From a virus, in IMG/VR virus record IMGVR_UViG_3300020039_000031: DNA of 64,000 nt; one strand, 5' to 3'. Shown here one piece after another: positions 1,865 through 60,345 of this stretch. A program made the position numbers and the translations under genes. Under the pieces are notes generated by a model. The model worked only from the letters and a program-made list of their open reading frames with translations, did no database searches and was not told the DNA's origin. Numbering within the stretch: position 1 is the stretch's first letter; each line of letters starts with the position of its first letter.

Positions 1865-2053
1865 TCAATCTGAAACCTCCTTGATATAAAGGCCGCAATG
1901 GCAAGTCCCTGACTTCATATCTTTGAAGTCTTTACACATACACTTCGTCTCTGGCACTTTTTCAAGAGCGCAGGGGCAATATCCGTCATTTTTGCGAAGA
2001 GCGTCGAGAATTTTCTCCCGATGCTCATGATTCTCTGTCATTTTGATTTTCAT
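1865..2053 (-). CDS. ferredoxin:thioredoxin/disulfide reductase catalytic-subunit-like small protein, paralog 1
   Basis: 62 aa; DGYCPCALEKVPETKCMCKDFKDMKSGTCHCGLYIK (CPC-x9-CMC-x10-CHC); tandem duplicate of 1541..1723. Confidence 0.5.
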   Translation of the reverse strand: MKIKMTENHEHREKILDALRKNDGYCPCALEKVPETKCMCKDFKDMKSGTCHCGLYIKEVSD

Positions 2054-2538
2054 CAGCTAATCTTCCTTGCGAATTGATTTTCGGATGCGAGTTGGACGCC
2101 AAGCACATCGTCAAATATTGGCTTTATATTGGGAATGTAGCGCCCAAACTTAATAATGATGTTTCCGAATTCCTGTAAGGCGGTCATAAAAGACTCGGTA
2201 ATTTCCTCCGGATAGTATCCTGTGTAAATAACGAAATCACACATCTCTCCGTGCTTACGAAAGGTTCGTACCAGTTCCAAAACTTCATCCGCCTGCAATA
2301 AGGGTTCAAGGCCGCCGATAACGACGGCCTTTGTAATATCATTTGACCTATACATATTTAATATAGTGTCGTCGGAAACATCACGAGGCTTAGATAGAGC
2401 AAGATCTGCGTTCTGACATATACTGATATCCAAGCCCTGCTCTCTACAGCACTTCCAGTCGCATTTTGAGCTGATGATAAACATGGATGGCAATCTGTAG
2501 TTGACGAAATCCTCAATTACAATGTCTTTGACGATCAC
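2053..2538 (-). CDS. nrdG: anaerobic ribonucleotide reductase activating protein (radical SAM)
   Basis: 161 aa, N-terminal Cys cluster KCDWKCCREQG; directly downstream of nrdD and overlapping it. Confidence 0.65.
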   Translation of the reverse strand: MIVKDIVIEDFVNYRLPSMFIISSKCDWKCCREQGLDISICQNADLALSKPRDVSDDTILNMYRSNDITKAVVIGGLEPLLQADEVLELVRTFRKHGEMCDFVIYTGYYPEEITESFMTALQEFGNIIIKFGRYIPNIKPIFDDVLGVQLASENQFARKIS

Positions 2539-4460
2539 TTCATGACTCCGTCGTTCGCCAAAACGTCTATCCAGCGTCGTTTATCGAACTCATTCTTACG
2601 AATTCGCTGATAACTGCTGACTGGCGTGTAAAACCCGACGACTCTTGCATATGTATCAGACACCGGTTTACCGCATTTTGGGCATGTGTTCATACCGATG
2701 AATGCGTGCTTGTCTTCGCAAACGCTGATCTTCGTGGTGAAAGCGAAATAAATAACCCCGTGGGACGCTACATAGTTCAGCATATCCCACGCGGTTTCTT
2801 CATTCTGAAATCTGTTCTCGATGTTGATATGGGCGATACAACCTCCGCCGCACTTCTTATCGAACAGAGAACCAAGCCTACACTTCTCTTGGATTGTGCA
2901 TTTCTCCATCAGCGGAATCCACTGATTCGAATATATAAAGTACTTGTTCTGCTCGAACAGGAGATTGTCCGCTTGGCAGATCACGCCAGCGCAGTTTTCC
3001 GCCGGTATCATTTCGATATTGAAAGAAAAGTCACAATCGAAATTATCTTTCACTTCGTTCATCACATCAAGAATCTCGGTTGCGAATTCAACAGCGGCTT
3101 CAGAATAAAACTTATTGCCAAGAACGTCTGTATCGATCAGGCCAAACAGATCCATGACCTCATACATACCGATACCGCCGATTGTACAGAACTGCTTGTC
3201 AAGCTCGACAGCTCCGTCCTGGTAGTTAGGCAAAAGCCCCTTCTCAATGTTTCGCTTGATGATGTGCCGCATGGAAAACAGTGCTTTACAGTCAAGGGTC
3301 ACGCGATCACGAAGGATGTTCAGATACTTCTTGCGGTTAAATCCGCTCTCATAGGCAATTCGCACGAGATTGATAGTGCTGACGCGGCAGGAACCGACAG
3401 ACAGCGCTGTACCGCCGATGGAGTTGATAAACGCATCGAGCTTTTTCGTATCTGATAACAGGCGGCAGCAGTTTGATAAGACGCCAACATTGTCGCTGAC
3501 GAAGAAGTTGCTGTCAGACCATCTAATGTTATGGTTGGAGCACCATCTGGCGAACTCTTCGTCTACGAATTTCCCGTTCTGATAGAGCAGTGAGTATGTT
3601 AAAACCGGATATGTGAACATATTGGTCTCACGAATCTCGCTGACTACATCCATAAATATCTTCTGCGCTTCGATCAGATCGTTGATGTGGTCAATGGCGA
3701 AAGTGCCGTCCGGGAACTCCACGCCTCCGAACAGCGATTCGAGATATGGATGATCGAAGATCGAAATATTAGTAAAGGCTGATTGATCTATCCTTAGGAA
3801 TGGTTGGTTAAGACGATAGATCAGCTTCTGATACTGCTGGCGAAGGTAGTAATCCGGATCTTTCATGAAGTATCCGTTCTCAACATCCTTCTTCCAGAAG
3901 TACCATGCCCAAATCAGTACATTGGGCATCCCAACTGCTCCGCTCTGGCGGTTTGACAGGAAGGAAACGAACTCGATCACATCATCGAAATATGTTGTAA
4001 GGTGCTTTGGAGCCTCGTTGTTGTAATTACCGAGGAAGAAAAGCCCTTCCTTGGCGAGCCTTGTGAAATCATTTGCCCAACAGTACGGGAAATAACTTGC
4101 TGTTGTACTATCGTTAAGGTAAAACCCCTTGCTGAATTCCTGCTCAAGCCATTGTTTCGCTGTGCGAAGTCCCCACTGCTTCTTGATTGTCATAAAGATC
4201 TTATTTAATCCAAAGAGCTTGTCCTCGCTCTTTGCTTTCTCCGTCATAAAGCTGCGGATATCCTTATGACTCACATTCGCATTTGGATCGATGCTCGCGT
4301 CGGCCACAGTTTCGTGATCAACGAAGTTCTCAATGAACTCCGAGAAATCGAGCTGGCTTGGATGAAGACCGTTGATATACTCAAAGTCCTCACCATATTT
4401 CTTTTTCAGTTCTTCAAGACACCGTTCAAAGTCCTTTGACAGTTTCAGTTCAATGTTCAT
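2535..4460 (-). CDS. nrdD: anaerobic ribonucleoside-triphosphate reductase, class III
   Basis: 641 aa; C-terminal Zn ribbon CPKCG followed by glycyl-radical-like motif ARVVGFYTP; ATP-cone-like N-terminus. Confidence 0.85.
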   Translation of the reverse strand: MNIELKLSKDFERCLEELKKKYGEDFEYINGLHPSQLDFSEFIENFVDHETVADASIDPNANVSHKDIRSFMTEKAKSEDKLFGLNKIFMTIKKQWGLRTAKQWLEQEFSKGFYLNDSTTASYFPYCWANDFTRLAKEGLFFLGNYNNEAPKHLTTYFDDVIEFVSFLSNRQSGAVGMPNVLIWAWYFWKKDVENGYFMKDPDYYLRQQYQKLIYRLNQPFLRIDQSAFTNISIFDHPYLESLFGGVEFPDGTFAIDHINDLIEAQKIFMDVVSEIRETNMFTYPVLTYSLLYQNGKFVDEEFARWCSNHNIRWSDSNFFVSDNVGVLSNCCRLLSDTKKLDAFINSIGGTALSVGSCRVSTINLVRIAYESGFNRKKYLNILRDRVTLDCKALFSMRHIIKRNIEKGLLPNYQDGAVELDKQFCTIGGIGMYEVMDLFGLIDTDVLGNKFYSEAAVEFATEILDVMNEVKDNFDCDFSFNIEMIPAENCAGVICQADNLLFEQNKYFIYSNQWIPLMEKCTIQEKCRLGSLFDKKCGGGCIAHINIENRFQNEETAWDMLNYVASHGVIYFAFTTKISVCEDKHAFIGMNTCPKCGKPVSDTYARVVGFYTPVSSYQRIRKNEFDKRRWIDVLANDGVMK

Positions 4461-4683: not shown

Positions 4684-5231
4684 TTCCTTTGATCTATGTG
4701 CTGAATCACCCGGTAGATGTCATCCCAGTTAAAAACCCGGTGCATACCGTGTATAGCCGCGTCATACCCGCGGTTGTGCGGCGCGTCCATCAGGATTTTG
4801 TGATAATCGCCGCCCTCTAAATTGTGGATTCCGTCGTCGATCAAAACATCGCCACGGATCATTTGTTTCTTTGTCGCCAGGATTACCTTGTCCCATGAAA
4901 GGAATGGATAGTATTTGAACAGCACGGTATCCATCTTCACTTCCACGGTCTTATAGTTGGAGTTCGTGACGATAAAAATATCGTGGCCGTCTGCCATTAG
5001 CTTCTGGAGCACTTCACTTGCTCCAGGAACCGGTTTGACATTCGCCCACAATTCCCCGTCTTTTAAGACGCCATATATTTGTTTGTGCGTAAGACCGGGA
5101 TAAAAATCTGTGATCCACCAACCAGTAACGTCTTCTGGATCAACATTCCGATCGTACTTTTTGTTGAGATATGGTATCCATGCCTGTAATAGCTGATCTA
5201 ATACCTCATCCATGTCTACAAGTATTGTCAA
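4680..5231 (-). CDS. 5'(3')-deoxyribonucleotidase, HAD family
   Basis: N-terminal DMDEVL (DxDxV/T HAD motif I) and VTNS; NT5C-like. Confidence 0.65.
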   Translation of the reverse strand: MTILVDMDEVLDQLLQAWIPYLNKKYDRNVDPEDVTGWWITDFYPGLTHKQIYGVLKDGELWANVKPVPGASEVLQKLMADGHDIFIVTNSNYKTVEVKMDTVLFKYYPFLSWDKVILATKKQMIRGDVLIDDGIHNLEGGDYHKILMDAPHNRGYDAAIHGMHRVFNWDDIYRVIQHIDQRN

Positions 5232-5794
5232 TCTGTCACCTCGTATCCATCTATAAGCGGCATTGGCTCGATCATACTATCGATCAGGTTATGTACATCC
5301 ACAATCAGATCGGACATTGGCCCGTTGTTATGGATCGTATAGTCTGCTTTCACACCGTCAAGCGAAGTCTCGGATGGATGATTCTTTTGCTTTTCGGTGA
5401 GACCGTTATCAAACCCATCACGAATTACACGAAGGAGCGACACATCAAACCCATATCCATTCATAGCACTGATCTCGTTCGGGAACCTTGTATCAGGAAT
5501 CAGAACAAAATCCCATTCGTCAGGGAAAAGATTGAGAACGCTTCCAATGAATCGAACCCAGAAGTTTTGATCCTGCGCACGAATAACGTCTGTGCCAACA
5601 TATTGCAGAAGCTGACGGCCATCCTCATCCTTCTTGCCGTCCCAACCAAAAAACATCTTACAGATGTATTTCAGCAGGTCGGCATAATGCGCAACCAGCA
5701 CACGAAAACCTCTTTCACGCAGCGTACTAGCCATGATCGACGCCGTAGTATCTTTTCCATGCTGCGCTTTCCCAGATATGCAGATTACCTTCAC
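5228..5794 (-). CDS. deoxynucleoside monophosphate kinase (T4 gp1-like)
   Basis: P-loop ISGKAQHGKDT; a start near 5794 avoids the overlap with the upstream gene. Confidence 0.6.
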   Translation of the reverse strand: MKVICISGKAQHGKDTTASIMASTLRERGFRVLVAHYADLLKYICKMFFGWDGKKDEDGRQLLQYVGTDVIRAQDQNFWVRFIGSVLNLFPDEWDFVLIPDTRFPNEISAMNGYGFDVSLLRVIRDGFDNGLTEKQKNHPSETSLDGVKADYTIHNNGPMSDLIVDVHNLIDSMIEPMPLIDGYEVTD

Positions 5795-6432
5795 GCCACC
5801 TCTTCCTCCTTCTCTTCTCTTGGAAGGATGAGCTCGGTTGCCATCGGGAGCGTTTCGACCCATCTGCAAAACTCTCTCCACTCGGGAAGCCGATGGTTTT
5901 TACGCTGCGCATAGACCGTTTTGAGAGCACGGTAGTTTGTCACGATGCCTGCGCGGAGCTTCATGCCGCATGGATTGCTGTACAGAAGCCGGAGGTAATC
6001 CTCTGGATCTCTTGTAGCATTATATCGATCTGCAAGTTCTTTCACGATCTCGATGCAACGTGGATCTGTGTATTTGATATATGATTCGTCGTAGTCGAAT
6101 CTAGCTATGCGGTGCATTGTCGATTGACTGCTGACGAAGTTCATAAACGTGTACCGTTCTTCCTCCGTCCATGCTTTAATCGTAAACTCAAGGTCAAACT
6201 CGACGGTAACGCCCGTCAGCCACTGGTCATGTCCCTCCCCCTTCTCACTCTGCGCAAGACCTCGGATTCCATCCGTCAGCTCTGCATTCAGGCATGACGT
6301 GTCGGTTGACATTGGATATTTTGCAAACCGGATGCTCTCATCGAGGCCGTATACATGCGTGTTTCGGCAACACCCGTAGTCTGTAACTATGTACTCACTC
6401 ATTTTCACAGTCCTCTTCTTCGTCATATTCAT
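5791..6432 (-). CDS. hypothetical protein in the nucleotide-metabolism cluster
   Basis: 213-aa ORF, no motif assigned with confidence. Confidence 0.4.
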   Translation of the reverse strand: MNMTKKRTVKMSEYIVTDYGCCRNTHVYGLDESIRFAKYPMSTDTSCLNAELTDGIRGLAQSEKGEGHDQWLTGVTVEFDLEFTIKAWTEEERYTFMNFVSSQSTMHRIARFDYDESYIKYTDPRCIEIVKELADRYNATRDPEDYLRLLYSNPCGMKLRAGIVTNYRALKTVYAQRKNHRLPEWREFCRWVETLPMATELILPREEKEEEVA

Positions 6433-6631
6433 CCCAGAAGCCGCATTCCGTGATTGGCGAGATCAGACATTCATCGATTATCTTATCCATGCACTCACAG
6501 CAGAGATCGATATCAAGATAATCCTCATCGTACCTTGATCCATACCCAAGACGTGTATGGAATGAGAACTTCTCCTGAATATCATAAACGTCCATGGTTT
6601 TTCCGCACTTATTGCAAATACAAATCCTCAA
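6395..6631 (-). CDS. small Cys-rich zinc-ribbon protein
   Basis: CICNKCGK ... CCEC pairs. Confidence 0.35.
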   Translation of the reverse strand: MRICICNKCGKTMDVYDIQEKFSFHTRLGYGSRYDEDYLDIDLCCECMDKIIDECLISPITECGFWDEYDEEEDCENE

Positions 6632-6652
6632 AGGCGTGTCTCCTGTTATGTA

Positions 6653-7387
6653 TTATTCCTCAAGCTCATCAGCGTGCTGACTAACCCACCCACGGTGATT
6701 GGTATGAAGCTCACAGATAGCAGCACGTTCCTTGCCGGAGAAATGGTTGATGTATCTGACAAATCCACTTGCGTTCGGATCGTCCAGATCGCATTGCTTA
6801 TCATGACCGATCACGATCACTTTGGATCGCGATCCAACTCTTGTAAGCGTTTTCTTGAGTTGCGCCGTCGTGTAGTTCTGCGCTTCGTCAAGAATAATTA
6901 CAGCTCTATCAAGGTTCGTTCCTCTCAGGAACGTATCTGTGATACAGGTGATATACCCAGTTCCGTTTTTCTGGTTCACCATGCTCTCATCGTTGATAGA
7001 TGTTGTCGGATTGACGTTGCAGTTGATGAGCGCCTGATAAAAAGCCTCGAAGTAGACAGCACTCTTTTCCGTGAAGCTACCAGGAAGATACCCTTGCTTT
7101 CGTTCGCCGTATGGCGACATGATGTACACGATCCCGTCGAACATACCGTAATGCACGAGGAGGTTTGCCACACCGGTCGCTATGGTTGTCTTTCCAGTAC
7201 CGGCTGTACTGTTGACAAACACGATATCAATGTCTGGATTCCAGATCGTATTCGCCAGCTCCAGTTGTTCCTTGTCCAGCTTTATACCGTAGAAGCACTC
7301 GTTCGTGATCTTCTCCGGCGGGTCTGGATGTGTCTCAATGTATGGTTTCTTTTTACTTGCCATAAACACCTCCTCTATGAAAACCAA
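6653..7387 (-). CDS. phoH: PhoH-like ATPase
   Basis: Walker A GTGKTT, DEAQN Walker B, and a PhoH-typical C-terminal region. Confidence 0.8.
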   Translation of the reverse strand: MVFIEEVFMASKKKPYIETHPDPPEKITNECFYGIKLDKEQLELANTIWNPDIDIVFVNSTAGTGKTTIATGVANLLVHYGMFDGIVYIMSPYGERKQGYLPGSFTEKSAVYFEAFYQALINCNVNPTTSINDESMVNQKNGTGYITCITDTFLRGTNLDRAVIILDEAQNYTTAQLKKTLTRVGSRSKVIVIGHDKQCDLDDPNASGFVRYINHFSGKERAAICELHTNHRGWVSQHADELEE

Positions 7388-13033: not shown

Positions 13034-14605
13034 GTGATCACATTGACCAGAAAGCAGCAAATCATCATGAGCCACCTGGCCGGGGTGAGCAACCGGCAGA
13101 TTGCATCGAAGATGCACATCAGCAAGGACACCGTGAACAAGTATGTGAAGGAGTACGATGCACAGCGGGCAGAATTGCTGACTCGGGATCCGGATGCAGA
13201 TCCAGAAGAGATTCTCCAGACCTTCGTAGAAGAACCGAAATACGACGCCAGTAACCGCACCCCGGTCATCGTAACGCCGGAGATGGAAGCCGCCGTGGAG
13301 CAGTGCCTACAGCTCAACGCTGTGAAGCGAGTGTCCGGGATGCGGAAACAGGCGATGAGGAAGAAGGACATCCACGAATACCTGGTTCGGGAAGGCTTTT
13401 CTGTAAGCTATTCCACGGTAAAACGGCTGGTGAACAGACTGGAAGCCCGTCATGAAGAGGCGTATATCCGGCAGGAATATCAGCCCGGTGAAACCTGTGA
13501 GTTCGACTGGGGCGAGGTCAAGCTGGATATAGCGAACAGCGGCTTCAAGAGATACCAGATGGCCGTATTCACAGCAGCATATAGCGGGGAGCGATTTGCC
13601 GTTCTCTACTGTTCACAGGATACGGCAGCATTCCAGGAATCCCATACGACCTTCTTTTCCTTCTGTCATGGAGCATTTCACACCATGGTCTATGACAACA
13701 TGAAGGTCGCCGTGCGGAAATTTGTTGGCCCGACAGAAAAGGAACCCACGAACGCGCTGCTGGAGTTGTCTCTGTATTATGGCTTCCAGTTTCGGTTCTG
13801 CAATGTACGCCGCGGGAACGAGAAGGGGCATGTGGAGCGCAGTGTGGATGTGGTTCGCCACAAAGCTTTCAGTGCACCCGGCTGTGACATTTTTGAATCT
13901 CTGGAGTCTGCCAACCGGTATCTGTTTGGCGTATGTGTCAGGCTGAACCGGGAAACGGCATCCAACGGCCAGGTTCCGGCAGAACTCTTTGAAGAAGAAC
14001 AGCGCTGTCTACTGCCGGCCATGCCGAGGTTCGAGTGCTGTATCCGGACGGAAAACAGCGTGGACAAGTACTCTACAGTCATGGTTGCCGGTAATCATTA
14101 CTCTGTGCCGGACACGCTTGTGGGAAAGCGTGTGCAGGTACGTCTTTACACGAGCAAGCTCGTTGTTTACTACGAAAACCGGATCGTGGCGACTCACAGC
14201 CGGAGTTTCCGCCCTCATGACTGGACGATTGACATCTATCACTATCTCCGAACCCTGAAACGCAAGCCCGGCGCTCTGCCCGGCAGCACGGCACTGCTGC
14301 AGTCCGACTCTGTTGTAAAGCAGATTTACGACACTTATTACACACAGGATGCTCGTACCTTCCTCGAAGTTCTGGAGGTCATATACGAGCTAGGCGCGGA
14401 TACTGTACAGCAGGCGCTTAAACGTATGGAGCGTCTGTCGCCGAAGGATATGAGCGCCCAAAAGATCCGCGTCGTATGCGAGAACACACTGCGTAAGGTG
14501 CCTCAGCAGCCGGGTTCTGACCATCTCAGTGAAAAAGCAAAAAGCACGCTCTCTCAATATGATCTGCTCAGACAACTGCAGATGGAAGGGAGTGTCGCTG
14601 TATGA
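13034..14605 (+). CDS. istA: IS21-family transposase IstA
   Basis: 523 aa, N-terminal HTH (QIASKMHISKDTVNKY); DDE region; overlaps istB by 4 nt. Confidence 0.8.
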   Translation: MITLTRKQQIIMSHLAGVSNRQIASKMHISKDTVNKYVKEYDAQRAELLTRDPDADPEEILQTFVEEPKYDASNRTPVIVTPEMEAAVEQCLQLNAVKRVSGMRKQAMRKKDIHEYLVREGFSVSYSTVKRLVNRLEARHEEAYIRQEYQPGETCEFDWGEVKLDIANSGFKRYQMAVFTAAYSGERFAVLYCSQDTAAFQESHTTFFSFCHGAFHTMVYDNMKVAVRKFVGPTEKEPTNALLELSLYYGFQFRFCNVRRGNEKGHVERSVDVVRHKAFSAPGCDIFESLESANRYLFGVCVRLNRETASNGQVPAELFEEEQRCLLPAMPRFECCIRTENSVDKYSTVMVAGNHYSVPDTLVGKRVQVRLYTSKLVVYYENRIVATHSRSFRPHDWTIDIYHYLRTLKRKPGALPGSTALLQSDSVVKQIYDTYYTQDARTFLEVLEVIYELGADTVQQALKRMERLSPKDMSAQKIRVVCENTLRKVPQQPGSDHLSEKAKSTLSQYDLLRQLQMEGSVAV

Positions 14606-15390
14606 CGAGCGCCAAGACGAACGCCGACATAAAGGAACTGTGCAAGATCCTGCGGCTGAACGGTATCGCGAAGAGCTTTGAGACCATGGAGCAGGAAGCT
14701 GCGGACTACGAGGATTTTCTGTACCGAATATTATCTCAGGAACTGCAGGAAGCCGAGGAACGGATGAAACAGTCCCGAATCCGACGTGCCCACTTTCCGT
14801 ACAAAAAATATCTGGAAGACCTTGAATTGGAATGCTTGCCAAGGGATATGCGCAAGCGGCTGCCGGAGCTCGCTGGATTGGACTTCATCCGCAACGGCCA
14901 AAATCTCATTCTCACCGGCAATCCCGGCACTGGAAAAACACATGTGGCCATTGGCCTCGGTATTCGAGCTTGCGAGCAAGGCTTCCGCGTTCTGTTCACC
15001 ACTGTTCCATATTTGGTAACAGAACTGAAGGAAAATGTGAATGCAAAAACGCTCAAGGCGTTTGAGAAACGGTTTGAAAAGTATGATTTGGTCATAGCCG
15101 ATGAGATGGGCTATGTCTCCTTTGACCGAGAGGGCGCAGACCTCCTGTTTACAAACCTCTCTCTGCGCGCCACCCAGAAATCCACGATTATTACATCCAA
15201 CCTGACCTTTGAGCGCTGGGACGAGATATTTGGCGACGCTGCCATTACCAGCGCCATTGTGGACAGACTCACCTACAAAGCCATCCTGGTAGATATGGAG
15301 GGCGACTCATATCGTTTCCGCGAGACCCTCCGTGCCAATGGAGCTTCTTTTGAACGACTGATGGAGGGTAAGAACGATGCCAAAGCTTGA
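14602..15390 (+). CDS. istB: IS21-family helper ATPase IstB
   Basis: Walker A GNPGTGKTH, Walker B VIADEMGY. Confidence 0.85.
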   Translation: MTSAKTNADIKELCKILRLNGIAKSFETMEQEAADYEDFLYRILSQELQEAEERMKQSRIRRAHFPYKKYLEDLELECLPRDMRKRLPELAGLDFIRNGQNLILTGNPGTGKTHVAIGLGIRACEQGFRVLFTTVPYLVTELKENVNAKTLKAFEKRFEKYDLVIADEMGYVSFDREGADLLFTNLSLRATQKSTIITSNLTFERWDEIFGDAAITSAIVDRLTYKAILVDMEGDSYRFRETLRANGASFERLMEGKNDAKA

Positions 15391-24788: not shown

Positions 24789-25390
24789 CTGCCTTTCATC
24801 ATTTCCAGTTGGTTCATCATTTCATCAAGAGCCTGCTCGCGTTCTCTGCCCGCAAGCTCCTGTATGCGATCGATATCTTTTTGTACGACTTGCGCAAAGC
24901 TCTCCATCTCAGCGTTTTGTCTATCTATTTCTCTGCGCAGTTTAAGTTCCCTCTCGACCTTTCGTCTGAAGCGATTGTATTTCAAGGCCTGAAAATAGTT
25001 TTTGAAGTATATACGCTGTTTACCTTTGTAGATCGGTTGTGACGTAGGAGAATACGTCAGTGTTATGTATTTTTCTCCATTGGGGATGGTTTTCTCACAA
25101 AAAACCCTTCTCGTTTCGTACTCTTCGTCACAGTAGGCAACCGCGTACCAGTCGTTGTCAATCTCGTATCGGTTAGGATTGATAGCGAAAAAAGAGGCGA
25201 ACTGATCAAATGTCAATTTAACAGAAGAATCGTACTCTCCGTCCGTTTTTGATTTTCTGTAACTCATTGGACTGTTTGAACAAAACAGATCTAGCAAGAA
25301 AATAGGCAACCCAAGCACCATCGTGAATGCCCAAAATAATACAAAAAGCCTCAACTTACATACCCTCGGTCGTGATGAATTCCCGCCCAT
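24785..25390 (-). CDS. membrane-anchored coiled-coil protein
   Basis: N-terminal TM helix, C-terminal heptad-rich region. Confidence 0.35.
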   Translation of the reverse strand: MGGNSSRPRVCKLRLFVLFWAFTMVLGLPIFLLDLFCSNSPMSYRKSKTDGEYDSSVKLTFDQFASFFAINPNRYEIDNDWYAVAYCDEEYETRRVFCEKTIPNGEKYITLTYSPTSQPIYKGKQRIYFKNYFQALKYNRFRRKVERELKLRREIDRQNAEMESFAQVVQKDIDRIQELAGREREQALDEMMNQLEMMKGR

Positions 25391-27584
25391 CGTCCGATGC
25401 GTAAAACATCTTGCGGAGCGTGCAGATATCCTTCGGGATCGTGTCTACATCATCACGGTCATGGAGTGTGCGTACCCAACCGTAAAAACGATTGGCAAGC
25501 GCTGTCGTCAGAGCTGATGTACGTTTACCGTCAATATGACCTTTGCGGATAGCCTCGTGCGCAACGCCGCGCATAAATTTCCAGAAGTTGTAGTAAGCCA
25601 GCTTGAGCTTAATCATATACCCTGTTGAATCTTCGATTACAAAGCCTTCGATATGGCGTCCTTGGTACATGTATTCCGGGTCTGTTACTTCGTAATACCA
25701 GTCAAAGAATTCGGGCCACTCATGAAGCACGAACGCTTTTTCCTTGCAGCGCAGGCTAAAAGCGGCGGCGACCTCTTTCAGTTGCTCATACGGCATCTTC
25801 GTGCATTTCAGGTCGTTTTTGATAATGTCCAGCAGGTAGAGACAGTTACCTGAATACTCAATGATGTGTGGATCATGAACCATGTCCACACACTCGAAGA
25901 CCATCGTGACATCATTCTCTTTCAGATATTGCTTGATGCGCTCGCGAACACCGGGAGCGACCGTCTCAAAAATCCCGCGCAGCCAAACAGCGTAGTCTCC
26001 GTCCGGAGAGGATTTGGTTGTGATAAATAGATTATCCTTGTCATGGTCATAGCTGATCAGGCTGAGGAACCCGTTTTCTTTCACATACGCAGTTACCGGG
26101 AAGACCAGCTTGGATTCCAGCATATCGAATTTCGTCTCGGGGCGCTCATTGATATTGAAGAACTTATCGTAAGCTCTTGCCACGATCTTTGCCTTTGGGA
26201 CATTAATGTAAAGCCCGCGTGCCTTCATCGTCTGCTCGTCCCACACCTTATCGTAGAATGCGCTCTTGGTGAAATTAAAGGATGAGATGTCTCCGTAACG
26301 TTTCTCTTGAATGTACTTGTTCTCCCGCATTTCGAGGATCACATCAGCAACATTCGTTGTCTTTTTGGGCTCATATACAACGACCTCTTCCGGCTCACGA
26401 AAAACCGTGTTCTTGATTTCCACCGTCTTGAAACCATCCGCTGACAACTGGACTACACGGAGCTCACCGCCAAACTCGACCCGTCCTTCCAGATTGAACA
26501 CTCTCTCATTCACCTGAACCGGCAGATGCTTTGTGTTCCGATGCCCGTGAATTTGATATGTATTCTCTGGTGTATTCGCAACAAAAGCGTTGGCGACCTT
26601 CTCGAAATCGTTATAGTTCCCCACGCCCTTGATCATCTGCTGAGTAGCTACGAGCGTCATGTTCTCTGGAATACAGCTCAGGCCGGCATGAGTTACGAGA
26701 ACCGTCTTATCACCGTATGAGTACCAAGCGCACTGTCCCATACGCCGGTAAAGTTGTCTCATTGCCTTTCGGTCAATCTTCGCGTCCTGAAGTTCTGCCT
26801 TCGTGTGCAGTTCAAAATCCTTGGATTTCGCCACTCCATCACATCCATACGTCCAGAGCCAACGCTCATGATTGCCCTCAAGGAGAAGTACGTTATCACG
26901 CCCGACAATATCCATGAGGAAGTTGATCACCTGTACATTCTCGATCCCTCGGTCAATGTAGTCTCCGCAGAAGATGTAGAACTCATCATCTTTTAGCGTC
27001 CCCTCATTATTGAAGTACTGTTGAAGTACTGTCCAGCATCCGTGAATGTCACCGATATGATGAATCTTCTTATAGTTGGAAAGATCGATCTTCCGCATCC
27101 ATATCTTATCCAGCTCATCCGGCTGGATGACCGTGATACCGGACGGGATCTTCTGCGTGGCAAACCTCGCGTACATACGGTCGATCGCCTCGTCAGGAAC
27201 CTGTTTGATCTCGGGACGCATCTTGTTCTGTGCCTTGCACCATTCGATAGGCAATCCGGTGAAGTCAACGCAGTAGATACGGTACCGGTATGTATCGCAC
27301 ATGTCTTTATAACGCTTCATCTCGATCGTTTTGGAGTTCGTGGCGTCGATCACCGTGAACGCGCCGTTCTGCATACGAGTTTCCAGCAGGCGAAACAGCG
27401 TATTCCAAACCACCTGATCGCTCGTGACATTGATCGCCCGCCCTCCGTCAACCGTCATGACCGGTCCGGCGCACATCAGACGAATATCATCAGCGGACAG
27501 CGCGTATGGCGTCAGCCCGTGTTCTTTGATCCATGTCGTCTTGCCGCAGCCAGGAGCTCCGCGCAGCAAAAGCAATACTCTCAT
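25356..27584 (-). CDS. polynucleotide kinase-phosphatase with ligase-like C-terminal domain (Pnkp-like RNA repair enzyme)
   Basis: P-loop GAPGCGKTT; calcineurin motifs GDIHGC/GDYIDRG/GNHE; ligase motif I KENG, EGFVIED, KLKL. Confidence 0.65.
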   Translation of the reverse strand: MRVLLLLRGAPGCGKTTWIKEHGLTPYALSADDIRLMCAGPVMTVDGGRAINVTSDQVVWNTLFRLLETRMQNGAFTVIDATNSKTIEMKRYKDMCDTYRYRIYCVDFTGLPIEWCKAQNKMRPEIKQVPDEAIDRMYARFATQKIPSGITVIQPDELDKIWMRKIDLSNYKKIHHIGDIHGCWTVLQQYFNNEGTLKDDEFYIFCGDYIDRGIENVQVINFLMDIVGRDNVLLLEGNHERWLWTYGCDGVAKSKDFELHTKAELQDAKIDRKAMRQLYRRMGQCAWYSYGDKTVLVTHAGLSCIPENMTLVATQQMIKGVGNYNDFEKVANAFVANTPENTYQIHGHRNTKHLPVQVNERVFNLEGRVEFGGELRVVQLSADGFKTVEIKNTVFREPEEVVVYEPKKTTNVADVILEMRENKYIQEKRYGDISSFNFTKSAFYDKVWDEQTMKARGLYINVPKAKIVARAYDKFFNINERPETKFDMLESKLVFPVTAYVKENGFLSLISYDHDKDNLFITTKSSPDGDYAVWLRGIFETVAPGVRERIKQYLKENDVTMVFECVDMVHDPHIIEYSGNCLYLLDIIKNDLKCTKMPYEQLKEVAAAFSLRCKEKAFVLHEWPEFFDWYYEVTDPEYMYQGRHIEGFVIEDSTGYMIKLKLAYYNFWKFMRGVAHEAIRKGHIDGKRTSALTTALANRFYGWVRTLHDRDDVDTIPKDICTLRKMFYASDDGREFITTEGM

Positions 27585-45234: not shown

Positions 45235-46374
45235 TTATCGCTTTAAGTCCTTTCGGATCATCGCAACGATATCCGCGTTGTATTTTTCTCCGATGTGCTT
45301 CACCATATCGTCGATCGCCTCGCGTTCCACATTGCGATAGTAGTTGCGAAGACCCTCCATAACTTGGATATCATGGAGATCCCACTCGATCCCGTGTTGC
45401 TTATCTGACACATACGCCGTGATCATTCCACGGAACTGCCTTCGCGCCTGAAGCCCGATGGTGATCTCGTTGTCTCTTGTAAGCATCAGACCGAGATTCC
45501 AGTTTGAGCCGGACGATGAGCCGTACCGCGTCTTTTTCTCATTCAAAACGTGTGGAGAGTTGAATTGCTTATGTACGTCCTTGATGAGTCGTTCAACAGC
45601 GTGGATATCAAAGTCATACTTCGACGATACGATCGTATCGTCAGAATACCTTGTGTAAACGAACTGCTGCTTCTGAAAATCCCGGAACGCATTGGCGAGC
45701 GTATAGTCGATGGGGATCATCAGGATGTTCGTGAGCGTCGGAGAGAGCGGAGTCCCCTGCGGGAGACCTCCATTCAAGAAACCGAGCTCCACAGCTTTTT
45801 CGAGCTGTTCCTTTCCCTGGTCGATCTTCATGACCTCCGAAAACGGGAAAATCATTGACAGCATCTGCATCGACCATTCCAGCGTCGTGTTGCCGAAGAA
45901 ATTTGATAGATCCAGCTTGCCAAACCACTTGCTTTCGTTGGCCTGATGGCGCTTAACGGCGTCGATCGTACAGCGCTTTTTGACATACGCAAACGCTGAC
46001 GTGTGATACAGCGCCCTGAAATCAGACTCGAACATCCGTTTCAGATCACGAAGTGCCGTCATCAAATCCTCACACGGCGCGTCGATCCTGCGAAGTCCAC
46101 CGGATTTCTTGGGGATATAGAATTCATAATAGAGTTCTTTGCGCGGCTGCTGACGGAGAAACTCCGTCCGTTCATTGAACTTTATGAGCTGTGAGATCAG
46201 ATATGGAACGCTGATCGTGCGCAGAAAATTGTTGCTGACATGCTCAACAGCGTATGTTCGTGTATTTGCCGTGCTGTCGTTTATCATCAGATTTCCGCGC
46301 CGCTTCTCAAATAAGAATTCCTCCAATGTAAGCTGATGATACATCGGAGACTGCATAACCGTTATATACGTCAC
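45235..46374 (-). CDS. reverse transcriptase (non-DGR, class unassigned)
   Basis: IPKKSGGLRRI (motifs 1/2), LDLSNFF (A), GLPQGTPLSPTLTNI (B'), YTRYSDDTIV (YxDD); GTG start with AAGGAGG RBS 7 nt upstream. Confidence 0.85.
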   Translation of the reverse strand: MTYITVMQSPMYHQLTLEEFLFEKRRGNLMINDSTANTRTYAVEHVSNNFLRTISVPYLISQLIKFNERTEFLRQQPRKELYYEFYIPKKSGGLRRIDAPCEDLMTALRDLKRMFESDFRALYHTSAFAYVKKRCTIDAVKRHQANESKWFGKLDLSNFFGNTTLEWSMQMLSMIFPFSEVMKIDQGKEQLEKAVELGFLNGGLPQGTPLSPTLTNILMIPIDYTLANAFRDFQKQQFVYTRYSDDTIVSSKYDFDIHAVERLIKDVHKQFNSPHVLNEKKTRYGSSSGSNWNLGLMLTRDNEITIGLQARRQFRGMITAYVSDKQHGIEWDLHDIQVMEGLRNYYRNVEREAIDDMVKHIGEKYNADIVAMIRKDLKR

Positions 46375-54406: not shown

Positions 54407-54669
54407 GTTGCTTCTCCTTTTTGATGATTGATTTTTAATAAATGGGCGGATTAACGTACCGCCCGATGCTCAAAGCACGCCCGCCAAGATGACGAGTTAC
54501 CGTCTCACCAGCGGCGGGTCGGAGTTGAACCGACGTTCCGGTATACAAACCGGAAAACCATCACCGCATGTTTTTGTTCTTTATTTCAGCCAGCATATCG
54601 CCGATCGCCCACAGCTCCAGGGCGATAAACACCAGCACGAAGAAGATCGCATACTGCATGTCTTTCCTC

Positions 54670-55368
54670 CTAGTGAAGCTCGACATAAGCGCCGCACTCA
54701 ACCATAGCCTTGTAGTGCTTGGCAACCATATCTCCATACGCCTCTGTCTTCGACAGCGTATCGAAAGCCGCCATTCGCTCCTCACTGTGCGCGATGTCAT
54801 GGACTTCCTTGAGCGTCGCGCCGCTCGCTATGGAGCGCCCTGTCATCTTGTCGATGGCGAACCATTTCTCGCTTCCCTTGTGCCAGTAGTACTGGAAGTT
54901 GAAGGGCTTGTCCTCTTCGAGGCCGCGAACGCGGTCGATCTTGCTCTTCTTTGTCACCGGATCACCGCGATATGTATACACCGTCGTTTCGCGGTAACCC
55001 TTGGGGATGCCGGGTTTTGACACGCTCGTTGCCTCCTTTGCGTGATCTCTTTTGAGCTTCTCCAGGCTCTCAATGAACCATGGATCGGGTTGATAGTGAT
55101 CCAGATGCTCCGACGCCAGACATGTCAGACACGTTTCCGTGTTGAGATTGAGGTGATACCGCTCACATGTGATACACCCCTTGTAGCTCCCGGACGGATC
55201 AAATGCCGCGCCCTTGACGCATTGATGCTGCGTACATCGCGGAGGGATTTCCACCTCCAGCCGCTTCGTCAGCCAATCGGTCATATCGTCGCGGGAGGAT
55301 CGTCGTTCTCCCACCATCCGACGCTCACCTCGCCCGTGACAGAGTTCCTGAGAACCTGCACGGTACAA
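54670..55368 (-). CDS. hypothetical protein with Cys pairs
   Basis: 232-aa ORF; the true start may be internal. Confidence 0.35.
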   Translation of the reverse strand: MYRAGSQELCHGRGERRMVGERRSSRDDMTDWLTKRLEVEIPPRCTQHQCVKGAAFDPSGSYKGCITCERYHLNLNTETCLTCLASEHLDHYQPDPWFIESLEKLKRDHAKEATSVSKPGIPKGYRETTVYTYRGDPVTKKSKIDRVRGLEEDKPFNFQYYWHKGSEKWFAIDKMTGRSIASGATLKEVHDIAHSEERMAAFDTLSKTEAYGDMVAKHYKAMVECGAYVELH

Positions 55369-55450
55369 TTCTCATGGATCTCCTCGATGTCGAACATGTT
55401 GGTCTGCACGACCTCATAGGACTTCGAGCGGCGTCTGCCAAAAAGCCATT

Positions 55451-55579
55451 TCATTTGCGGCACCTCTTGTCTTTCTTTTCCTCGTGCTTGATAAGGCAAA
55501 CGAAGATCACAGCGCAAATCACGAGGAGCGAGATAACGATCGCACCAACGATGTCTTTCACGGTCAAGACAATTACCAT
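55451..55579 (-). CDS. small hydrophobic membrane peptide (42 aa)
   Basis: AAGAAGGAGG RBS then ATG; MVIVLTVKDIVGAIVISLLVICAVIFVCLIKHEEKKDKRCRK. Confidence 0.35.
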   Translation of the reverse strand: MVIVLTVKDIVGAIVISLLVICAVIFVCLIKHEEKKDKRCRK

Positions 55580-55951
55580 TGCAAATCCTCCTTCTTTTTA
55601 GCGGGGCGCGGTTCACCTGTATTCTCCACCGCAAGGATGCACATTTATTGATACTCCCGCCGCCAGGACAGCATTTCCCTGACTTGCTCGTTTGTGAGCC
55701 ACACACCCGCTGGAAAGATAGCTACTCTGCCCCGGAACGCGGGATTTCCTCCGGATTGCAACCGGCACCGGCTGGAGGGCTCGAACCTCCACTCCATTCG
55801 TACTGCCGCCGTGATCTTCGGCGACCCAATGGCTGCTACACCCTGACCGGCATATATGGTGGGAGGGGATGGATTTGAACCACCGTACCATTTTGGACTC
55901 ATTTTACACACGTTTACCGTGCGGCGCGCCTGAGTGGGTTTGACCGCTTCC

Positions 55952-56227
55952 CTACCCTCCCATAGTATGTCGAAGATACTCGGCAACCAGATTGTTGTAC
56001 CGAGCACCCTCATCGTACAGTCGCTCAGCTTTGGCTAATTTCCAGCCAAACCAGTGATAAGCCGCGATGTATGTCTCGCGGTCATACAGAACGATATTAC
56101 CGTGTTTTACTCTGTCTCGAACCTCCGCTTGCTTGGCTTTGTTGAACCTGTCCAGCGTTCCGAGATACCCCGTGACCCGGCGAACACGCTCGAAGTTTAC
56201 GCCATTTCCTATGTCCATAGGAGCCAC
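55952..56227 (-). CDS. stand-alone glycyl-radical-motif protein resembling the NrdD C-terminus, copy 1
   Basis: FERVRRVTGYLGTLDRFNKAKQAEVRDRVKH matches the RVCGYLG...FN.GK..E...RVKH tail of enterobacterial NrdD. Confidence 0.55.
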   Translation of the reverse strand: MAPMDIGNGVNFERVRRVTGYLGTLDRFNKAKQAEVRDRVKHGNIVLYDRETYIAAYHWFGWKLAKAERLYDEGARYNNLVAEYLRHTMGG

Positions 56228-56230
56228 ACT

Positions 56231-56638
56231 TCAGTTATGATGCTCTTCCCGCGGAGCAAATAAGCGCTCCCCGATTTCTTTCGGAAGCGGATAAACCAGC
56301 TCATCAACTCCGGTGAAGAGCAGCGGACAGCCTGCACTGTCGTAGGCCGGAATGAGTTTCTCATTTCCTTTGCCAGGACGCATATATGTGTTCATAGACG
56401 TTGGCGGAAGTTCCGCACTGAAAAACTCACCAACCTGAATATCTTTAAGTTTCTTCGGCGTGATAAGGCCAAGGTTGTATTTCTTGTACATATCAACGAT
56501 GTAGTCCACCTCTTTTTCGCTCCTATCGTTGTACCGCTTCATGCGCTTTGTCAGGCGGCCGGAGCACGGCTCCGTGCGAGTTGTAACACCGCACGCATCG
56601 AAGTAGACACACCTAACGCAAGGATGTTTTACCGTCAT
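56231..56638 (-). CDS. zinc-ribbon protein paired with glycyl-radical copy 1
   Basis: N-terminal CVRCVYFDACGVTTRTEPCSG. Confidence 0.4.
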   Translation of the reverse strand: MTVKHPCVRCVYFDACGVTTRTEPCSGRLTKRMKRYNDRSEKEVDYIVDMYKKYNLGLITPKKLKDIQVGEFFSAELPPTSMNTYMRPGKGNEKLIPAYDSAGCPLLFTGVDELVYPLPKEIGERLFAPREEHHN

Positions 56639-56834
56639 AGAAACCTCATTTCATGTGCTCGTGGCACCACGCCAACGACTCGTTGATCCCGGCCAGAACC
56701 CACGCGCCGTCGTCGTCGGGGCCGAGTTCCTCCCTCATGCCCTCCGGAAGTGTATTAATAAACGGCTGACCAGTGCTGTCGTGCTGGATGGGAAGCTCAT
56801 TCCAGTAGAAATCTCGCATTATAGAACACCTCTT

Positions 56835-57293
56835 TTACAGATATTCCATAGGACATAGCCCGAGAATACAGAACCCGGACATCAACCCGTACTCGCTTGC
56901 ATTCCGCAAGATGTATGTGATGCGATGAACCGTATAAGCGCCGGTATAATCTGTGCCGTCCCACTCGCGCAGGACTAAGATATCTCCGGTTTCAAAACCG
57001 CGGTCATCACGACGGATTTCAAAGTTCTTGTCTCTTGCGTGAAAATACCGAGGAAGCGTTTTTAGTTCATGGAATCGTGTTCCAAGTTCCTCAACAATCC
57101 CGTCCTTAGCAGGCTCGAACCCGATGGCGTGGCATCCGTAAAACCCGGTGCGAGAAATGCCAGGGATACATGATTTGCACGGCTCCTCATCGTATCGAAC
57201 ATTGTAGTTGGCGCACATATTGCATGTGCAACGCCTGTCACCAACCTCGAAGCTCAACGGATTTTGGGCTGGATATAACCACGGAAATTGCAT
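56835..57293 (-). CDS. ASCH/PUA-like domain protein with N-terminal Cys cluster
   Basis: CTCNMCANY..CKSC; GDILVLREWDG...YTGAYTVHRI. Confidence 0.3.
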   Translation of the reverse strand: MQFPWLYPAQNPLSFEVGDRRCTCNMCANYNVRYDEEPCKSCIPGISRTGFYGCHAIGFEPAKDGIVEELGTRFHELKTLPRYFHARDKNFEIRRDDRGFETGDILVLREWDGTDYTGAYTVHRITYILRNASEYGLMSGFCILGLCPMEYL

Positions 57294-57347
57294 TGAATCA
57301 TCCTCCGTAGCAAGTATAGTTTTGTTATTGAACTTTACGTATCTACT

Positions 57348-57755
57348 TCATTCTTCAATATCCAAACATGAGATGCCGGTGGATGCAGTGAATATTCGCT
57401 CGCACTCTTCCACAGCGCCATCCCATCCTTTGGAATACTCGTCCGTCGCACCTGCGCCGCCAGCTTCGTGTATATCTCGGAAGAGGTTTGCGAGAAAGGT
57501 GCTATCTGTCACTTCAACCGTTGTTCCAAAACCATTCGATTCTCCGAGCACAATGCTTAGTTTATTTGCGTCCTGAAGATCATCAGATATGATGATTTCA
57601 TTTTCTACAAAGGGGCGGCTTCCCACAAGCGCATCGCAAATCGAATTCCGTAGTGTCTCATAGTTATTACCGTCCGTATGAATTATTAATTCGACCATAA
57701 AAAGAATCCTTTCATCAGACATCGAAAAACCACTCGTCCAAACATCCAACCACAT
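57348..57755 (-). CDS. hypothetical protein
   Basis: 135-aa ORF. Confidence 0.35.
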   Translation of the reverse strand: MWLDVWTSGFSMSDERILFMVELIIHTDGNNYETLRNSICDALVGSRPFVENEIIISDDLQDANKLSIVLGESNGFGTTVEVTDSTFLANLFRDIHEAGGAGATDEYSKGWDGAVEECERIFTASTGISCLDIEE

Positions 57756-58171
57756 CAGAAGAAGACGCGGCGAAGCCCAGCCGCAACCGTTCGTTCCACA
57801 GTGATGCTGCCAAACTCGGGACAGATCGGATCGTCGTGGTTATACACATAAGCAAACACGATCCCGTCAGTGATATCCTCGTTGTCGTAATCCCACTCTT
57901 CCTCGCAGTCGCTTACCCACAGGTAGGCGTCCATCTTCCCATCGGTCGTATAACTGCGGACGACCAGATATACGAGACCGTTGTTTTCCTCTTCGATGGC
58001 GCGGATACGCTCAAGATCCTCGCCCTCAGCCCAGTAGAACGCTCCGAAAGGCGGCTCACTGATGCTGATATACCCGTCCTTCTCAAACTGTTTGATCGTC
58101 TGAGGGAAAATGCCGAGCTTCTTCATGCGGGCAACGGCCTCTGCTTTCTTTGCCTCGATAGGCACTCTCAC
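57755..58171 (-). CDS. hypothetical protein
   Basis: 138-aa ORF. Confidence 0.35.
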   Translation of the reverse strand: MRVPIEAKKAEAVARMKKLGIFPQTIKQFEKDGYISISEPPFGAFYWAEGEDLERIRAIEEENNGLVYLVVRSYTTDGKMDAYLWVSDCEEEWDYDNEDITDGIVFAYVYNHDDPICPEFGSITVERTVAAGLRRVFF

Positions 58172-58605
58172 GCCGGGATCACCTCGTTTCCTTCACGGTG
58201 CGGCTGGCATTTTCCGTACCGCTCATAGTTTTCCCTGATCTTGTCATAGAGCTTCATCGGATCGAAAGACATGAGAGCCGCTGCGCGTTTCGACCGGAAG
58301 AAGTCATCCACATCGGCAAGATTGGCAAGAGCTGTGAACCGATACATCCTTTCGCCGTGCACCGACACAAATTCCCTGCCCGTTTCTTCGATTCGCTTGA
58401 GTGCGTCTTTTGCGTCCTCATAATCCTGAACCGCTCTATCAATGACAGCGGCGGCGAGCAGTACATACCCGTCGTCGCCGGTCATCGTGTGCTTTACGCG
58501 ATCTTTTTCCTCGGCCTTCTTCGCATCATTGAACCTATCGAGAGTGCCGAGATACCCGGTCACACGCCGGACTCTCTCGAAGGCGACGCTCTGCCCCGCG
58601 CTCAT
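58168..58605 (-). CDS. stand-alone glycyl-radical-motif protein resembling the NrdD C-terminus, copy 2
   Basis: AFERVRRVTGYLGTLDRFNDAKKAEEKDRVKH; ATGA overlap with the upstream Zn-ribbon gene. Confidence 0.55.
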   Translation of the reverse strand: MSAGQSVAFERVRRVTGYLGTLDRFNDAKKAEEKDRVKHTMTGDDGYVLLAAAVIDRAVQDYEDAKDALKRIEETGREFVSVHGERMYRFTALANLADVDDFFRSKRAAALMSFDPMKLYDKIRENYERYGKCQPHREGNEVIPA

Positions 58606-58784
58606 GCGTTGCAGAACTGTTTCTTGCCCTTCCTCCCGGTATCAGGGCAGATTCCGCCGTTGTGCTTATAGCACCGCTCACAGAAATACTTGTGAGCATC
58701 GGGACGGTAGTTCGTCGGAGAGCCGTCCACATGCAGGACGGGCGCTGTCGTGATCTTTTCCAGCGCATTGGTATACGTTGCCAT
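58602..58784 (-). CDS. zinc-ribbon protein paired with glycyl-radical copy 2
   Basis: 60 aa, CERC...C...C. Confidence 0.4.
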   Translation of the reverse strand: MATYTNALEKITTAPVLHVDGSPTNYRPDAHKYFCERCYKHNGGICPDTGRKGKKQFCNA

Positions 58785-59479: not shown

Positions 59480-59704
59480 TTATATCATTGCCGGCGCGGT
59501 ATGCCCGGAACCCCACCGGAATAATACCTTATACTGGTCGTTCTCGTCCGGCTTTGTTCCGCGTGTGCCGATGATTTTCGTGCCGTCGGAGACTCTGGCT
59601 GTGAACTTGCCGTTCTCCGCGGAGAACTCAGCATATAGCCGACCGTCAATCTTGTGCAGGAGACGCTCGACCCGCTGCTTGAATTCCAGACCGTTGAGAC
59701 CCAT
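59480..59704 (-). CDS. hypothetical protein
   Basis: 74-aa ORF. Confidence 0.35.
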   Translation of the reverse strand: MGLNGLEFKQRVERLLHKIDGRLYAEFSAENGKFTARVSDGTKIIGTRGTKPDENDQYKVLFRWGSGHTAPAMI

Positions 59705-60310: not shown

Positions 60311-60345
60311 AGAAAAGCCGTCGGAGAAATCCGGCGGCTTATTGT

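Follow-up and report, generated by a model that had tools for sequence, protein, structure and literature searches.

Stand-alone radical tails of class III ribonucleotide reductase type in a large phage: candidate autonomous glycyl-radical modules

Introduction

Strict anaerobes rely on class III ribonucleotide reductase (RNR) for their DNA precursors, and a single oxygen hit destroys the enzyme. Why, then, would a large phage of gut type that encodes a complete class III RNR of its own also carry two small genes with the glycyl-radical tail of a different one? The question is raised by a 64,000-nucleotide stretch of viral DNA (IMG/VR record IMGVR_UViG_3300020039_000031), referred to here as the window, which lies within a 119.6 kb source contig. 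The two open reading frames (ORFs), ORF A (55952..56227) and ORF B (58168..58605), are both on the minus strand. An initial annotation of the window proposed that each forms a pair with a zinc-ribbon protein encoded just upstream, that each pair recreates the C-terminus of an E. coli-type NrdD, the catalytic subunit of class III RNR, and that the pairs could act as spare radical domains. The follow-up described here retains the tail and gives up the pairing. That the two ORFs encode autonomous glycyl-radical modules of the class III RNR type is the explanation favored, with the balance standing about even.

The Two Tail Modules

ORF A encodes 91 residues from a GTG start codon, or 88 from an ATG at 56218 (protein P0005), and consists of a short leader, an NrdD glycyl-radical tail and a 49-residue C-terminal extension. 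Its tail, NFERVRRVTGYLGTLDRFNKAKQAEVRDRVKH, occupies 56102..56197 (minus strand) and its predicted radical glycine is Gly20 of the 91-residue form (codon 56168..56170). ORF B encodes 145 residues (P0001), with an eight-residue leader, the tail FERVRRVTGYLGTLDRFNDAKKAEEKDRVKHT at 58486..58581 (minus strand; predicted radical glycine Gly17, codon 58555..58557) and a folded helical C-terminal domain (residues 44–128, 58222..58476, minus strand) that matches a phage protein family of unknown function (phrog_7024, E 9.9e-08). After a leader of 8–11 residues the two proteins have in common the sequence (N/A)FERVRRVTGYLGTLDRFNxAKxAExxDRVKH. Residues 11–42 of ORF A correspond to positions 532–562 of the 562-position Pfam NRDD profile (PF13597) with 32.5 bits and residues 9–39 of ORF B to positions 533–562 with 30.6 bits, where the gathering score is 26.2 bits; the PHROG NrdD families match both proteins too. 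The glycyl-radical motif that had been noticed in both ORFs is thus recovered by the NrdD-profile search proposed for it, the only amendment being that it begins at residue 9–12 and not at the start of the protein. Neither the two ORFs nor representative members of the family described below are matched at E≤1 by profiles for GrcA and PF01228.

The closest solved structure for the tail is the Prevotella copri NrdD chain, of which residues 707–739, including the radical glycine, align with the tail of ORF B. Nothing in ORF A or ORF B corresponds to the core of NrdD, a ten-stranded α/β barrel, or to its Cys finger loop, as only the last ~31 of the 562 profile positions are represented, and the NCBIfam NrdD models score about 40 bits on the two proteins against cut-offs of 326–764. 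The RxxGY motif and the conserved C-terminal helix and strand of NrdD are present, but N-terminal in the protein, and the 8–11 residues before the motif include no cysteine, so that the NrdD Cys4 site has no counterpart in either chain. ORF A has no full-length homologue except itself, and its C-terminal extension has no homologue in 5.8 billion proteins. When the six-frame translation of the whole window is searched with a hidden Markov model (HMM) of the tail only, two places are found (74.8 and 71.1 bits, E about 1e-22 and 1e-21) and the next match has an E value above 1; a third tail copy or a tail-less NrdD within the window was ruled out by this search.

The type of the tail is informative. 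Among full-length models PRK07111, which represents NrdD of Bacillota/Bacteroidota length, fits best (E about 2e-10), while the 712-position model PRK09263 is much weaker (E 0.002 and 0.06); the description of the tail as E. coli-type therefore does not hold. An example of a Bacillota NrdD with this tail type is a 787-residue enzyme (locus L002) that ends in ...FERIRRITGYLVGTVDRFNNGKRAEERDRVKH. The phage's own NrdD (2535..4460, minus strand) is a complete class III RNR catalytic subunit of PRK08271 type (562.9 bits against an equivalog cut-off of 545), and the end of its gene is overlapped by that of an NrdG-like activase (2053..2538, minus strand; Fer4_12 29.4 bits, with weak matches to NrdG models). 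Just as the initial annotation had it, this NrdD ends in ...ARVVGFYTP... and so differs from the tails of ORF A and ORF B; its tail goes undetected by the tail HMM. On these profile comparisons the ORF A and ORF B tail is of the Bacillota NrdD type and unrelated to that of the phage's own enzyme.

The two tails have been kept as peptides. They form a direct repeat (D1) with 71% DNA identity over 101 nucleotides, and their protein identity is 87%. The proportion of differing synonymous sites (pS) is 0.81, that is saturated, and that of nonsynonymous sites (pN) is 0.136. Since synonymous sites are saturated while the proteins remain 87% identical, the tail peptide is under purifying selection. 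The ORF B orthologue P0002, in contig L009, is 71% identical, with a ratio of nonsynonymous to synonymous substitution rates (dN/dS) of about 0.13. A recent duplication was considered as the origin of the two tails and is ruled out by the 71% DNA identity and the saturated synonymous sites. Both tails and P0002 have the same one-residue deletion after GYL and are therefore paralogues within this phage lineage.

A Wider Family of Stand-Alone NrdD-Tail Proteins

When ORF A and ORF B serve as queries, protein searches lead to dozens of proteins of 85–116 residues in which a domain of ~55 residues is followed by the same tail, here C-terminal. An alignment of 38 members (A4) has R, R, T, G, Y, N, A, K, E, R, V and H as invariant residues of the tail, and all residues of this pattern, R-R-x-T-G-Y ... 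N-x-A-K-x-x-E-x-x-x-R-V-x-H, are kept in ORF A and ORF B. The A4 profile finds 2,763 matches at E≤1e-3 and 1,786 at E≤1e-10 among 1.84 billion cluster representatives, which gives a family size of about 1,800 clusters at 50% identity. Of the 150 strongest matches, nearly all are proteins of 84–140 residues that cover the whole profile. In a scan of one genome per species there are at least 596 matches; the best 80 are all full-length small genes, with genome labels that are nearly all Bacillota and include the cultured Ruminococcus flavefaciens FD-1 and ATCC 19208 as well as Christensenellales, Oscillospiraceae, Faecalibacterium, Lachnospiraceae and Erysipelotrichaceae. The libraries of Pfam (2025) and NCBIfam (June 2026) hold no model for these small proteins beyond the NrdD tail.

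The family belongs to bacteria of Clostridia type and to their phages, and is found in the core bacterial chromosome as well as in phage genomes. Tail-only proteins of 42–70 residues occur in phages, other than that of the window, without a nearby NrdD, and tail-only proteins of 52 residues in IMG/VR phages of about 40–50 kb. One such 52-residue protein, MYTRLHAVNGIVGKGVKFERIRRVTGYLVGTLDRFNDAKKAEVHDRVKHMHA, lies near one contig end, at about 4956..5123, in L019–L029 and L032 (IMG/VR phages of about 25–50 kb). One of these phage loci, L025, was examined in detail and has a reverse transcriptase and a transposase-like gene, with no NrdD in the flanking DNA examined. Forms without the N-terminal domain were seen in phage-like contexts only. 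Extensions after the tail exist in other family members (P0100, P0203 and L034), and there are genuine full-length NrdDs with the same shorter loop, GYLGTLDRFN. Judged by these alignments, ORF A and ORF B are odd-shaped, divergent representatives of this large and so far unnamed family.

A short Cys pair also follows RVKH in many NrdDs and small tail proteins, for example SECNC, LECSC, TSCCESTEGR or FSCSTK. Instances are found in L091 (2945..2968 and 3256..3282) and in P0045, P0049, P0051–P0054, P0023 and P0010. The pair has the look of a C-terminal CxC/CC motif that is conserved.

Genomic Links to Class III RNR

A first link between the family and NrdD comes from a Rep3-type plasmid- or phage-like element (L015, at 4740..7306, and L016), in which a 764-residue NrdD stops just past its zinc ribbon, at ...CPKCGRVLETVTHEELTTWQDIMQEGKE, and has no Gly tail. 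A small ORF of ~91 residues overlaps it, with an AGGAGGG Shine-Dalgarno sequence and a GTG start that overlaps the NrdD stop codon, and encodes the small domain of the family and the tail. The same small protein occurs on 16 contigs, and the split is therefore not an assembly error. The arrangement reads as a natural two-piece NrdD with its tail supplied in trans; alternatively, a programmed frameshift may fuse the core and the small ORF. A second locus, L091, has a complete NrdD with a small gene 30 nucleotides downstream, and the 32-residue tails of the two are identical while 9 of the 96 nucleotides differ, all synonymously.

Regulation provides a further link. NrdR is a dedicated RNR repressor that binds paired 16-bp boxes with spacers of 15–16 or 24–27 bp (PMC12051234). 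The published box-pair pattern is present upstream of 28 of 79 bacterial small genes (35%) and in 15 of 1,433 windows that were taken from the same loci as controls (1%). With single boxes that agree with at least 13 of 16 consensus positions the counts are 38 of 79 against 9 of 1,795 controls, and with correctly spaced tandem boxes 32 of 79 against 8 of 1,809. The consensus behind the 13/16 score is reportedly that of Rodionov and Gelfand 2005, and the published pattern is the firmer test. Correctly spaced pairs are located 200–250 nucleotides upstream of many small genes in L040–L119. Such boxes at tail-protein genes would place a gene without RNR annotation in the NrdR regulon. Some recurrent neighbors are related to oxygen. 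A regulator of the Crp/Fnr family adjoins the small gene in 12 of 80 loci, and in L014 as well, and rubrerythrin does so in nine of 80; grcA of E. coli, a gene for a spare part of another glycyl-radical enzyme (GRE), is FNR-regulated. NrdD or NrdG as a conserved neighbor of the bacterial small genes was looked for and rejected, NrdD being within 3 kb in only one of 80 loci.

A broken tail of another kind is found in the cultured Eggerthella phage EL753P1 (OP172808.1; L001, 664..4116). The annotated nrdD has an intein-like insertion and stops past the zinc ribbon. The Gly tail lies ~450 nucleotides downstream behind a 102-residue ORF and is split over two frames by five extra bases (TGACC) in ...RRI|TGYL.... 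The cause may be an error in sequencing, decay to a pseudogene or recoding.

Structural Predictions

An AlphaFold2 model of ORF B has a mean predicted local distance difference test (pLDDT) score of 70.8. Residues 1–20, with the Gly loop, are of low confidence and flexible, a helix follows at residues 22–35, and residues 45–130 form a confident helical domain with a β-hairpin (pLDDT 85–96). A Foldseek search with this C-terminal domain against PDB and BFVD gave nothing at E≤0.001. For a typical family member (P0021), the model has a β-α-β-β N-terminal domain with pLDDT of about 80, followed by a tail that is flexible and contains one helix. In the P. copri NrdD, the radical domain comprises a zinc site, a buried Gly loop and a tail with a short helix across the barrel surface, and is highly mobile (PMC11226230). 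A tail that is disordered alone and docks into a partner is in keeping with this picture.

Proposed Function and Alternatives

Taken together, the comparative genomics of the family points to an action in trans on NrdD. In the most economical reading, the family would supply the NrdD radical tail in trans, as a spare part once oxygen has cleaved the enzyme or, in split enzymes, as the small subunit that is regularly there. The phage proteins would be divergent members directed at an NrdD of host type, given that the phage's own NrdD has a tail of unrelated kind; this enzyme is context, and not their likely client. The closest cultured relatives of the phage infect Clostridioides and agree with a host that has the Bacillota NrdD type. 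We infer activation by NrdG, docking on NrdD, the identity of the client enzyme and a benefit for the phage as follows. The NrdG activase would recognize the ~32-residue tail and put the radical on its glycine. A Bacillota-type (host) NrdD that lacks its tail, or has lost it through cleavage by oxygen at the radical glycine, would then receive the loop in its barrel, with the following helix and strand lying on the barrel surface as in native NrdD and the C-terminal extensions of the phage proteins remaining outside. The supply of deoxynucleoside triphosphates (dNTPs) would thereby continue for phage replication. Of the initial proposal, the autonomous NrdD radical module is supported by homology, selection, the family and its genomic links, and the zinc-ribbon pairing is not.

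Several observations weigh against this explanation. The phage has a complete NrdD and NrdG, and why it should have to repair a host enzyme is not obvious. Some related phages have the tail and others do not (L010 lacks it), so it is dispensable. The N-terminal β-α-β-β domain of the family (~55 residues) is missing in ORF A and ORF B; their tail is N-terminal, with 71 and 128 residues after the glycine against about 25–35 in the family. Luttringer et al. 2009 reportedly found the NrdD zinc site to be needed for radical formation; the small proteins have no zinc site, so their activation would need the zinc ribbon of the core or some other arrangement. An NrdR box pair was sought upstream of ORF A and ORF B and none was found, although this is expected because the genes sit inside a phage operon. 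The odd shape of the two proteins is compatible with docking, because post-tail extensions and the shorter GYLGTLDRFN loop occur elsewhere.

The main rival is that the proteins are decoys or modulators, in which the tail mimics the radical domain of the host NrdD and binds host NrdG or the NrdD barrel without supporting catalysis. Host ribonucleotide reduction would be damped or rewired while the phage uses its own NrdD and NrdG, and the added C-terminal domains could obstruct or modify the active-site flap or allosteric control. The phage's own enzyme pair with its unrelated tail is in keeping with this, as are the bulky extra domains that follow the tail in ORF A and ORF B, their lack of the family N-terminal domain and the restriction of such N-domain-less forms to phage-like contexts; moreover, the glycyl-radical domain of NrdD is dynamic, and a competing tail could plausibly enter (PMC11226230). 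Against a decoy, the radical glycine and the entire surface-helix segment are invariant, beyond the activase-binding loop. Small phages carry tails with no NrdD in up to 5–7 kb of flanking DNA examined, and for them lower host dNTPs would be self-defeating. The bacterial homologues are chromosomal and NrdR-regulated, and one is essential as a split subunit, which argues for a productive role of the family. A decoy is thus unlikely, though it deserves more weight than any other alternative.

A bolder variant starts from the missing N-terminal domain and the phage-specific domains after the tail, and regards the proteins as hijack modules more than plain spare parts. The phage radical loop would be inserted into host NrdD and the C-terminal domain would lie where the native tail passes over the active-site flap and the route to the ATP-cone, which could let the host enzyme work on in spite of oxygen damage or feedback inhibition by dATP. 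This is rather improbable; if true, a virus would exchange the cofactor-bearing domain of a host radical enzyme and thereby reprogram it.

Module Exchange and the Upstream Cys4 Genes

A third alternative denies the tail a function of its own. A segment of ~100 nucleotides from the end of an nrdD gene may have been gained by recombination, for example at a homing endonuclease or intron site, and be a mere N-terminal leader for C-terminal parts that do the work. The nrdD region before the tail is prone to interruption, as in EL753P1, and a GIY-YIG endonuclease lies beside P0055; the surroundings of ORF A and ORF B are mosaic, with small ORFs that have been shuffled, and the C-terminal domain of ORF B stands alone in L010. 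A passive leader would nevertheless not be expected to keep 87% peptide identity and all invariant residues through synonymous saturation, nor to persist as a 42-residue tail-only ORF at the equivalent position in the related phage L142. In ORF A the extension has no homologue, which leaves the tail as its sole conserved part. A captured fragment is accordingly improbable, slightly more so than the hijack module.

The pairing with upstream Cys4 genes fares worse still. ORF A follows a 135-residue ORF (56231..56638, minus strand) with an N-terminal CxxC-x5-C-x8-C pattern, and ORF B follows a 60-residue ORF (58602..58784, minus strand) with a strong Shine-Dalgarno sequence (AAGGAGG) and a dN/dS of about 0.1 against its counterpart in L009. 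The coupling of the genes that had been claimed is real: the ATG of ORF B overlaps the upstream stop codon (ATGA), so that ORF B is translationally coupled, ORF A starts 3 (GTG) or 12 (ATG) nucleotides past the upstream stop codon, and a good Shine-Dalgarno sequence of its own is absent before either. Both upstream products do contain four cysteines, but the claim that they open with them applies to the 135-residue ORF and not to the 60-residue one, where C35, C38, C46 and C58 are at the C-terminal end. As zinc ribbons they rest on the Cys4 pattern, no profile library recognizing either. A search of IMG/VR gave no relatives of the two ORFs.

In the initial annotation, Cys4 protein and tail protein would assemble as two partners and so restore the zinc ribbon and Gly loop of NrdD. 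Besides the translational coupling of both pairs, it could be said for this that the pair is kept in L009 and that in pair B, placed end to end, the last cysteine precedes the glycine by 19 residues, compared with 18 in Clostridial NrdD. Against it, similarity of the 135-residue and 60-residue ORFs to the CxxC...CxxC region of NrdD or to each other was sought and none was found. The pairing is also broken in related phages. In L010, the 60-residue ORF is kept, followed by an unrelated ORF of 144 residues and then by the tail-less C-terminal domain of ORF B (P0003), with no tail anywhere in the 9.5 kb examined. L142 is a relative with the same DUF3850 gene as the window. Its homologue of the 135-residue ORF, a 58-residue ORF that resembles only the N-terminal 35 residues, adjoins no tail gene and is followed by an unrelated gene, and its 42-residue tail-only ORF comes after a protein without a Cys pattern. 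A zinc ribbon is absent from the hundreds of family members examined, and Cys-rich small ORFs are common in the region. The rebuilding of an NrdD C-terminus by such pairs is therefore quite improbable, below the captured fragment, and the Cys4 neighbors are probably just upstream genes of the same operon and not functional partners of the tail. Because the pairing breaks in L010 and L142, the tail is seen to be a swappable module of ~40 residues in a mosaic region.

Cys-rich N-termini are frequent among the small ORFs around ORF A and ORF B. One belongs to a 152-residue protein (window 56835..57293, minus strand), in which a CxCxxC...CxxC segment is fused to the DUF3850 domain (ASCH-like, RNA-binding; 77 bits), and this protein is nearly identical in L142 (911..1369). 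In relatives, a secreted or lipoprotein-like ORF lies exactly at the position of the window's tail module in L010 (2692..3126), and another directly upstream of a tail-only ORF in L139 (4061..4603); these show module exchange at the domain boundary.

Least probable is some other radical or oxygen-sensing module, in which the activated glycine passes its radical to a different target via the C-terminal domain or serves as an oxygen-triggered, self-cleaving switch: the two paralogues do carry different C-terminal domains and glycyl radicals do cut the backbone in oxygen (PMC12288474; PMC13450708), but no other GRE core or partner is encoded nearby, a cut at Gly17 or Gly20 would free a short leader only, and the genomic links of the family are all to RNR.

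The Phage and its Other Genes

The genome arm that the window represents serves replication and nucleotide metabolism in a large phage, and nearly all its genes are on the minus strand. Its products include a DnaE-type DNA polymerase, a primase, a DnaB-type helicase, a polynucleotide kinase/RNA ligase fusion and 11 tRNAs. Among cultured phages, the polymerase is nearest (43%) to that of large Clostridioides difficile phages, and for this reason the host is likely to be of Clostridia type; a megablast search with the DNA of 54000–61500 against cultured phages gave no match.

Three other loci of the window deserve mention. Two plus-strand ORFs (13034..15390) lie inside the otherwise minus-strand arm; the first encodes a transposase (phrog_1157, E 7e-63), the local GC content rises to about 0.52, and the segment is probably an insertion sequence within the phage genome. 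A 379-residue ORF (45235..46374, minus strand) matches families of phage polymerases and reverse transcriptases (phrog_2825 and phrog_1423) and could belong to a diversity-generating retroelement or retron. The 742-residue polynucleotide kinase/phosphatase and RNA ligase fusion (25356..27584, minus strand; phrog_8238, E 1e-218), together with the 11 tRNA genes, suggests a tRNA repair system.

Comparison with Known Systems

Should the proposed function be correct, an NrdR-regulated tail protein would explain how DNA synthesis continues through oxygen pulses in gut and rumen Clostridia and their phages. Phage biology would gain a new class of auxiliary gene, and about 1,800 protein clusters would gain a name. 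The two-piece NrdD, and the NrdD beside a small gene with an identical tail, are natural material for testing spare parts of GREs.

The closest parallel is provided by GrcA/YfiD of E. coli and Y06I of phage T4, which are spare parts for pyruvate formate-lyase, the activase-charged piece replacing the domain that oxygen has cleaved (PMC8683613; PMC13450708). The NrdD-tail proteins resemble them as small stand-alone proteins that have the radical-bearing piece of a GRE without its catalytic core, that are encoded by bacteria and by phage, and in which the rest of the protein is flexible. By this analogy the proposed logic of the NrdD-tail proteins is that of GrcA/YfiD. They differ in that the tail is of the NrdD type (PF13597) and not the Gly_radical type of pyruvate formate-lyase (PF01228; IPR011140), in that the copied piece is about 32 residues long compared with about 60 and is N-terminal in ORF A and ORF B, and in that the client would be a class III RNR. 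Whether spare-part repair exists for other GREs is a question that the field has asked (PMC8683613; PMC13450708). According to a review of June 2026, no GRE class other than the formate lyases has spare-part proteins that have been identified (PMC13450708), and a search of the literature found no report of an NrdD equivalent. The remark in the initial annotation that no such module had been described for class III RNR is in agreement with this, and the NrdD-tail family, from its sequences and gene contexts, looks like the first spare-part system for that enzyme.

Compared with the C-terminal radical domain of NrdD itself, as in P. copri (8P23) and T4 (1H7A), the tail is homologous in sequence across the buried Gly loop, the short helix and the end, which is extended, and RRxTGY and N.AK..E...RVKH are kept. 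Unlike NrdD, ORF A and ORF B lack the barrel, the Cys finger loop and the zinc site, unrelated sequence follows their tail, and they are 91 and 145 residues long compared with about 640–790.

Finally, there is precedent for an RNR in more than one piece. The NrdA of Aeromonas phage Aeh1 is split by a homing endonuclease. The class II enzyme NrdJa/NrdJb is made from two separately encoded polypeptides (PMC9669993). The L015 enzyme would be a class III example, with the tail on a separate small subunit. In the window, unlike in these split RNRs, the phage NrdD is complete and the two small proteins correspond to another NrdD type, which makes them extra modules and not the halves of a divided gene.

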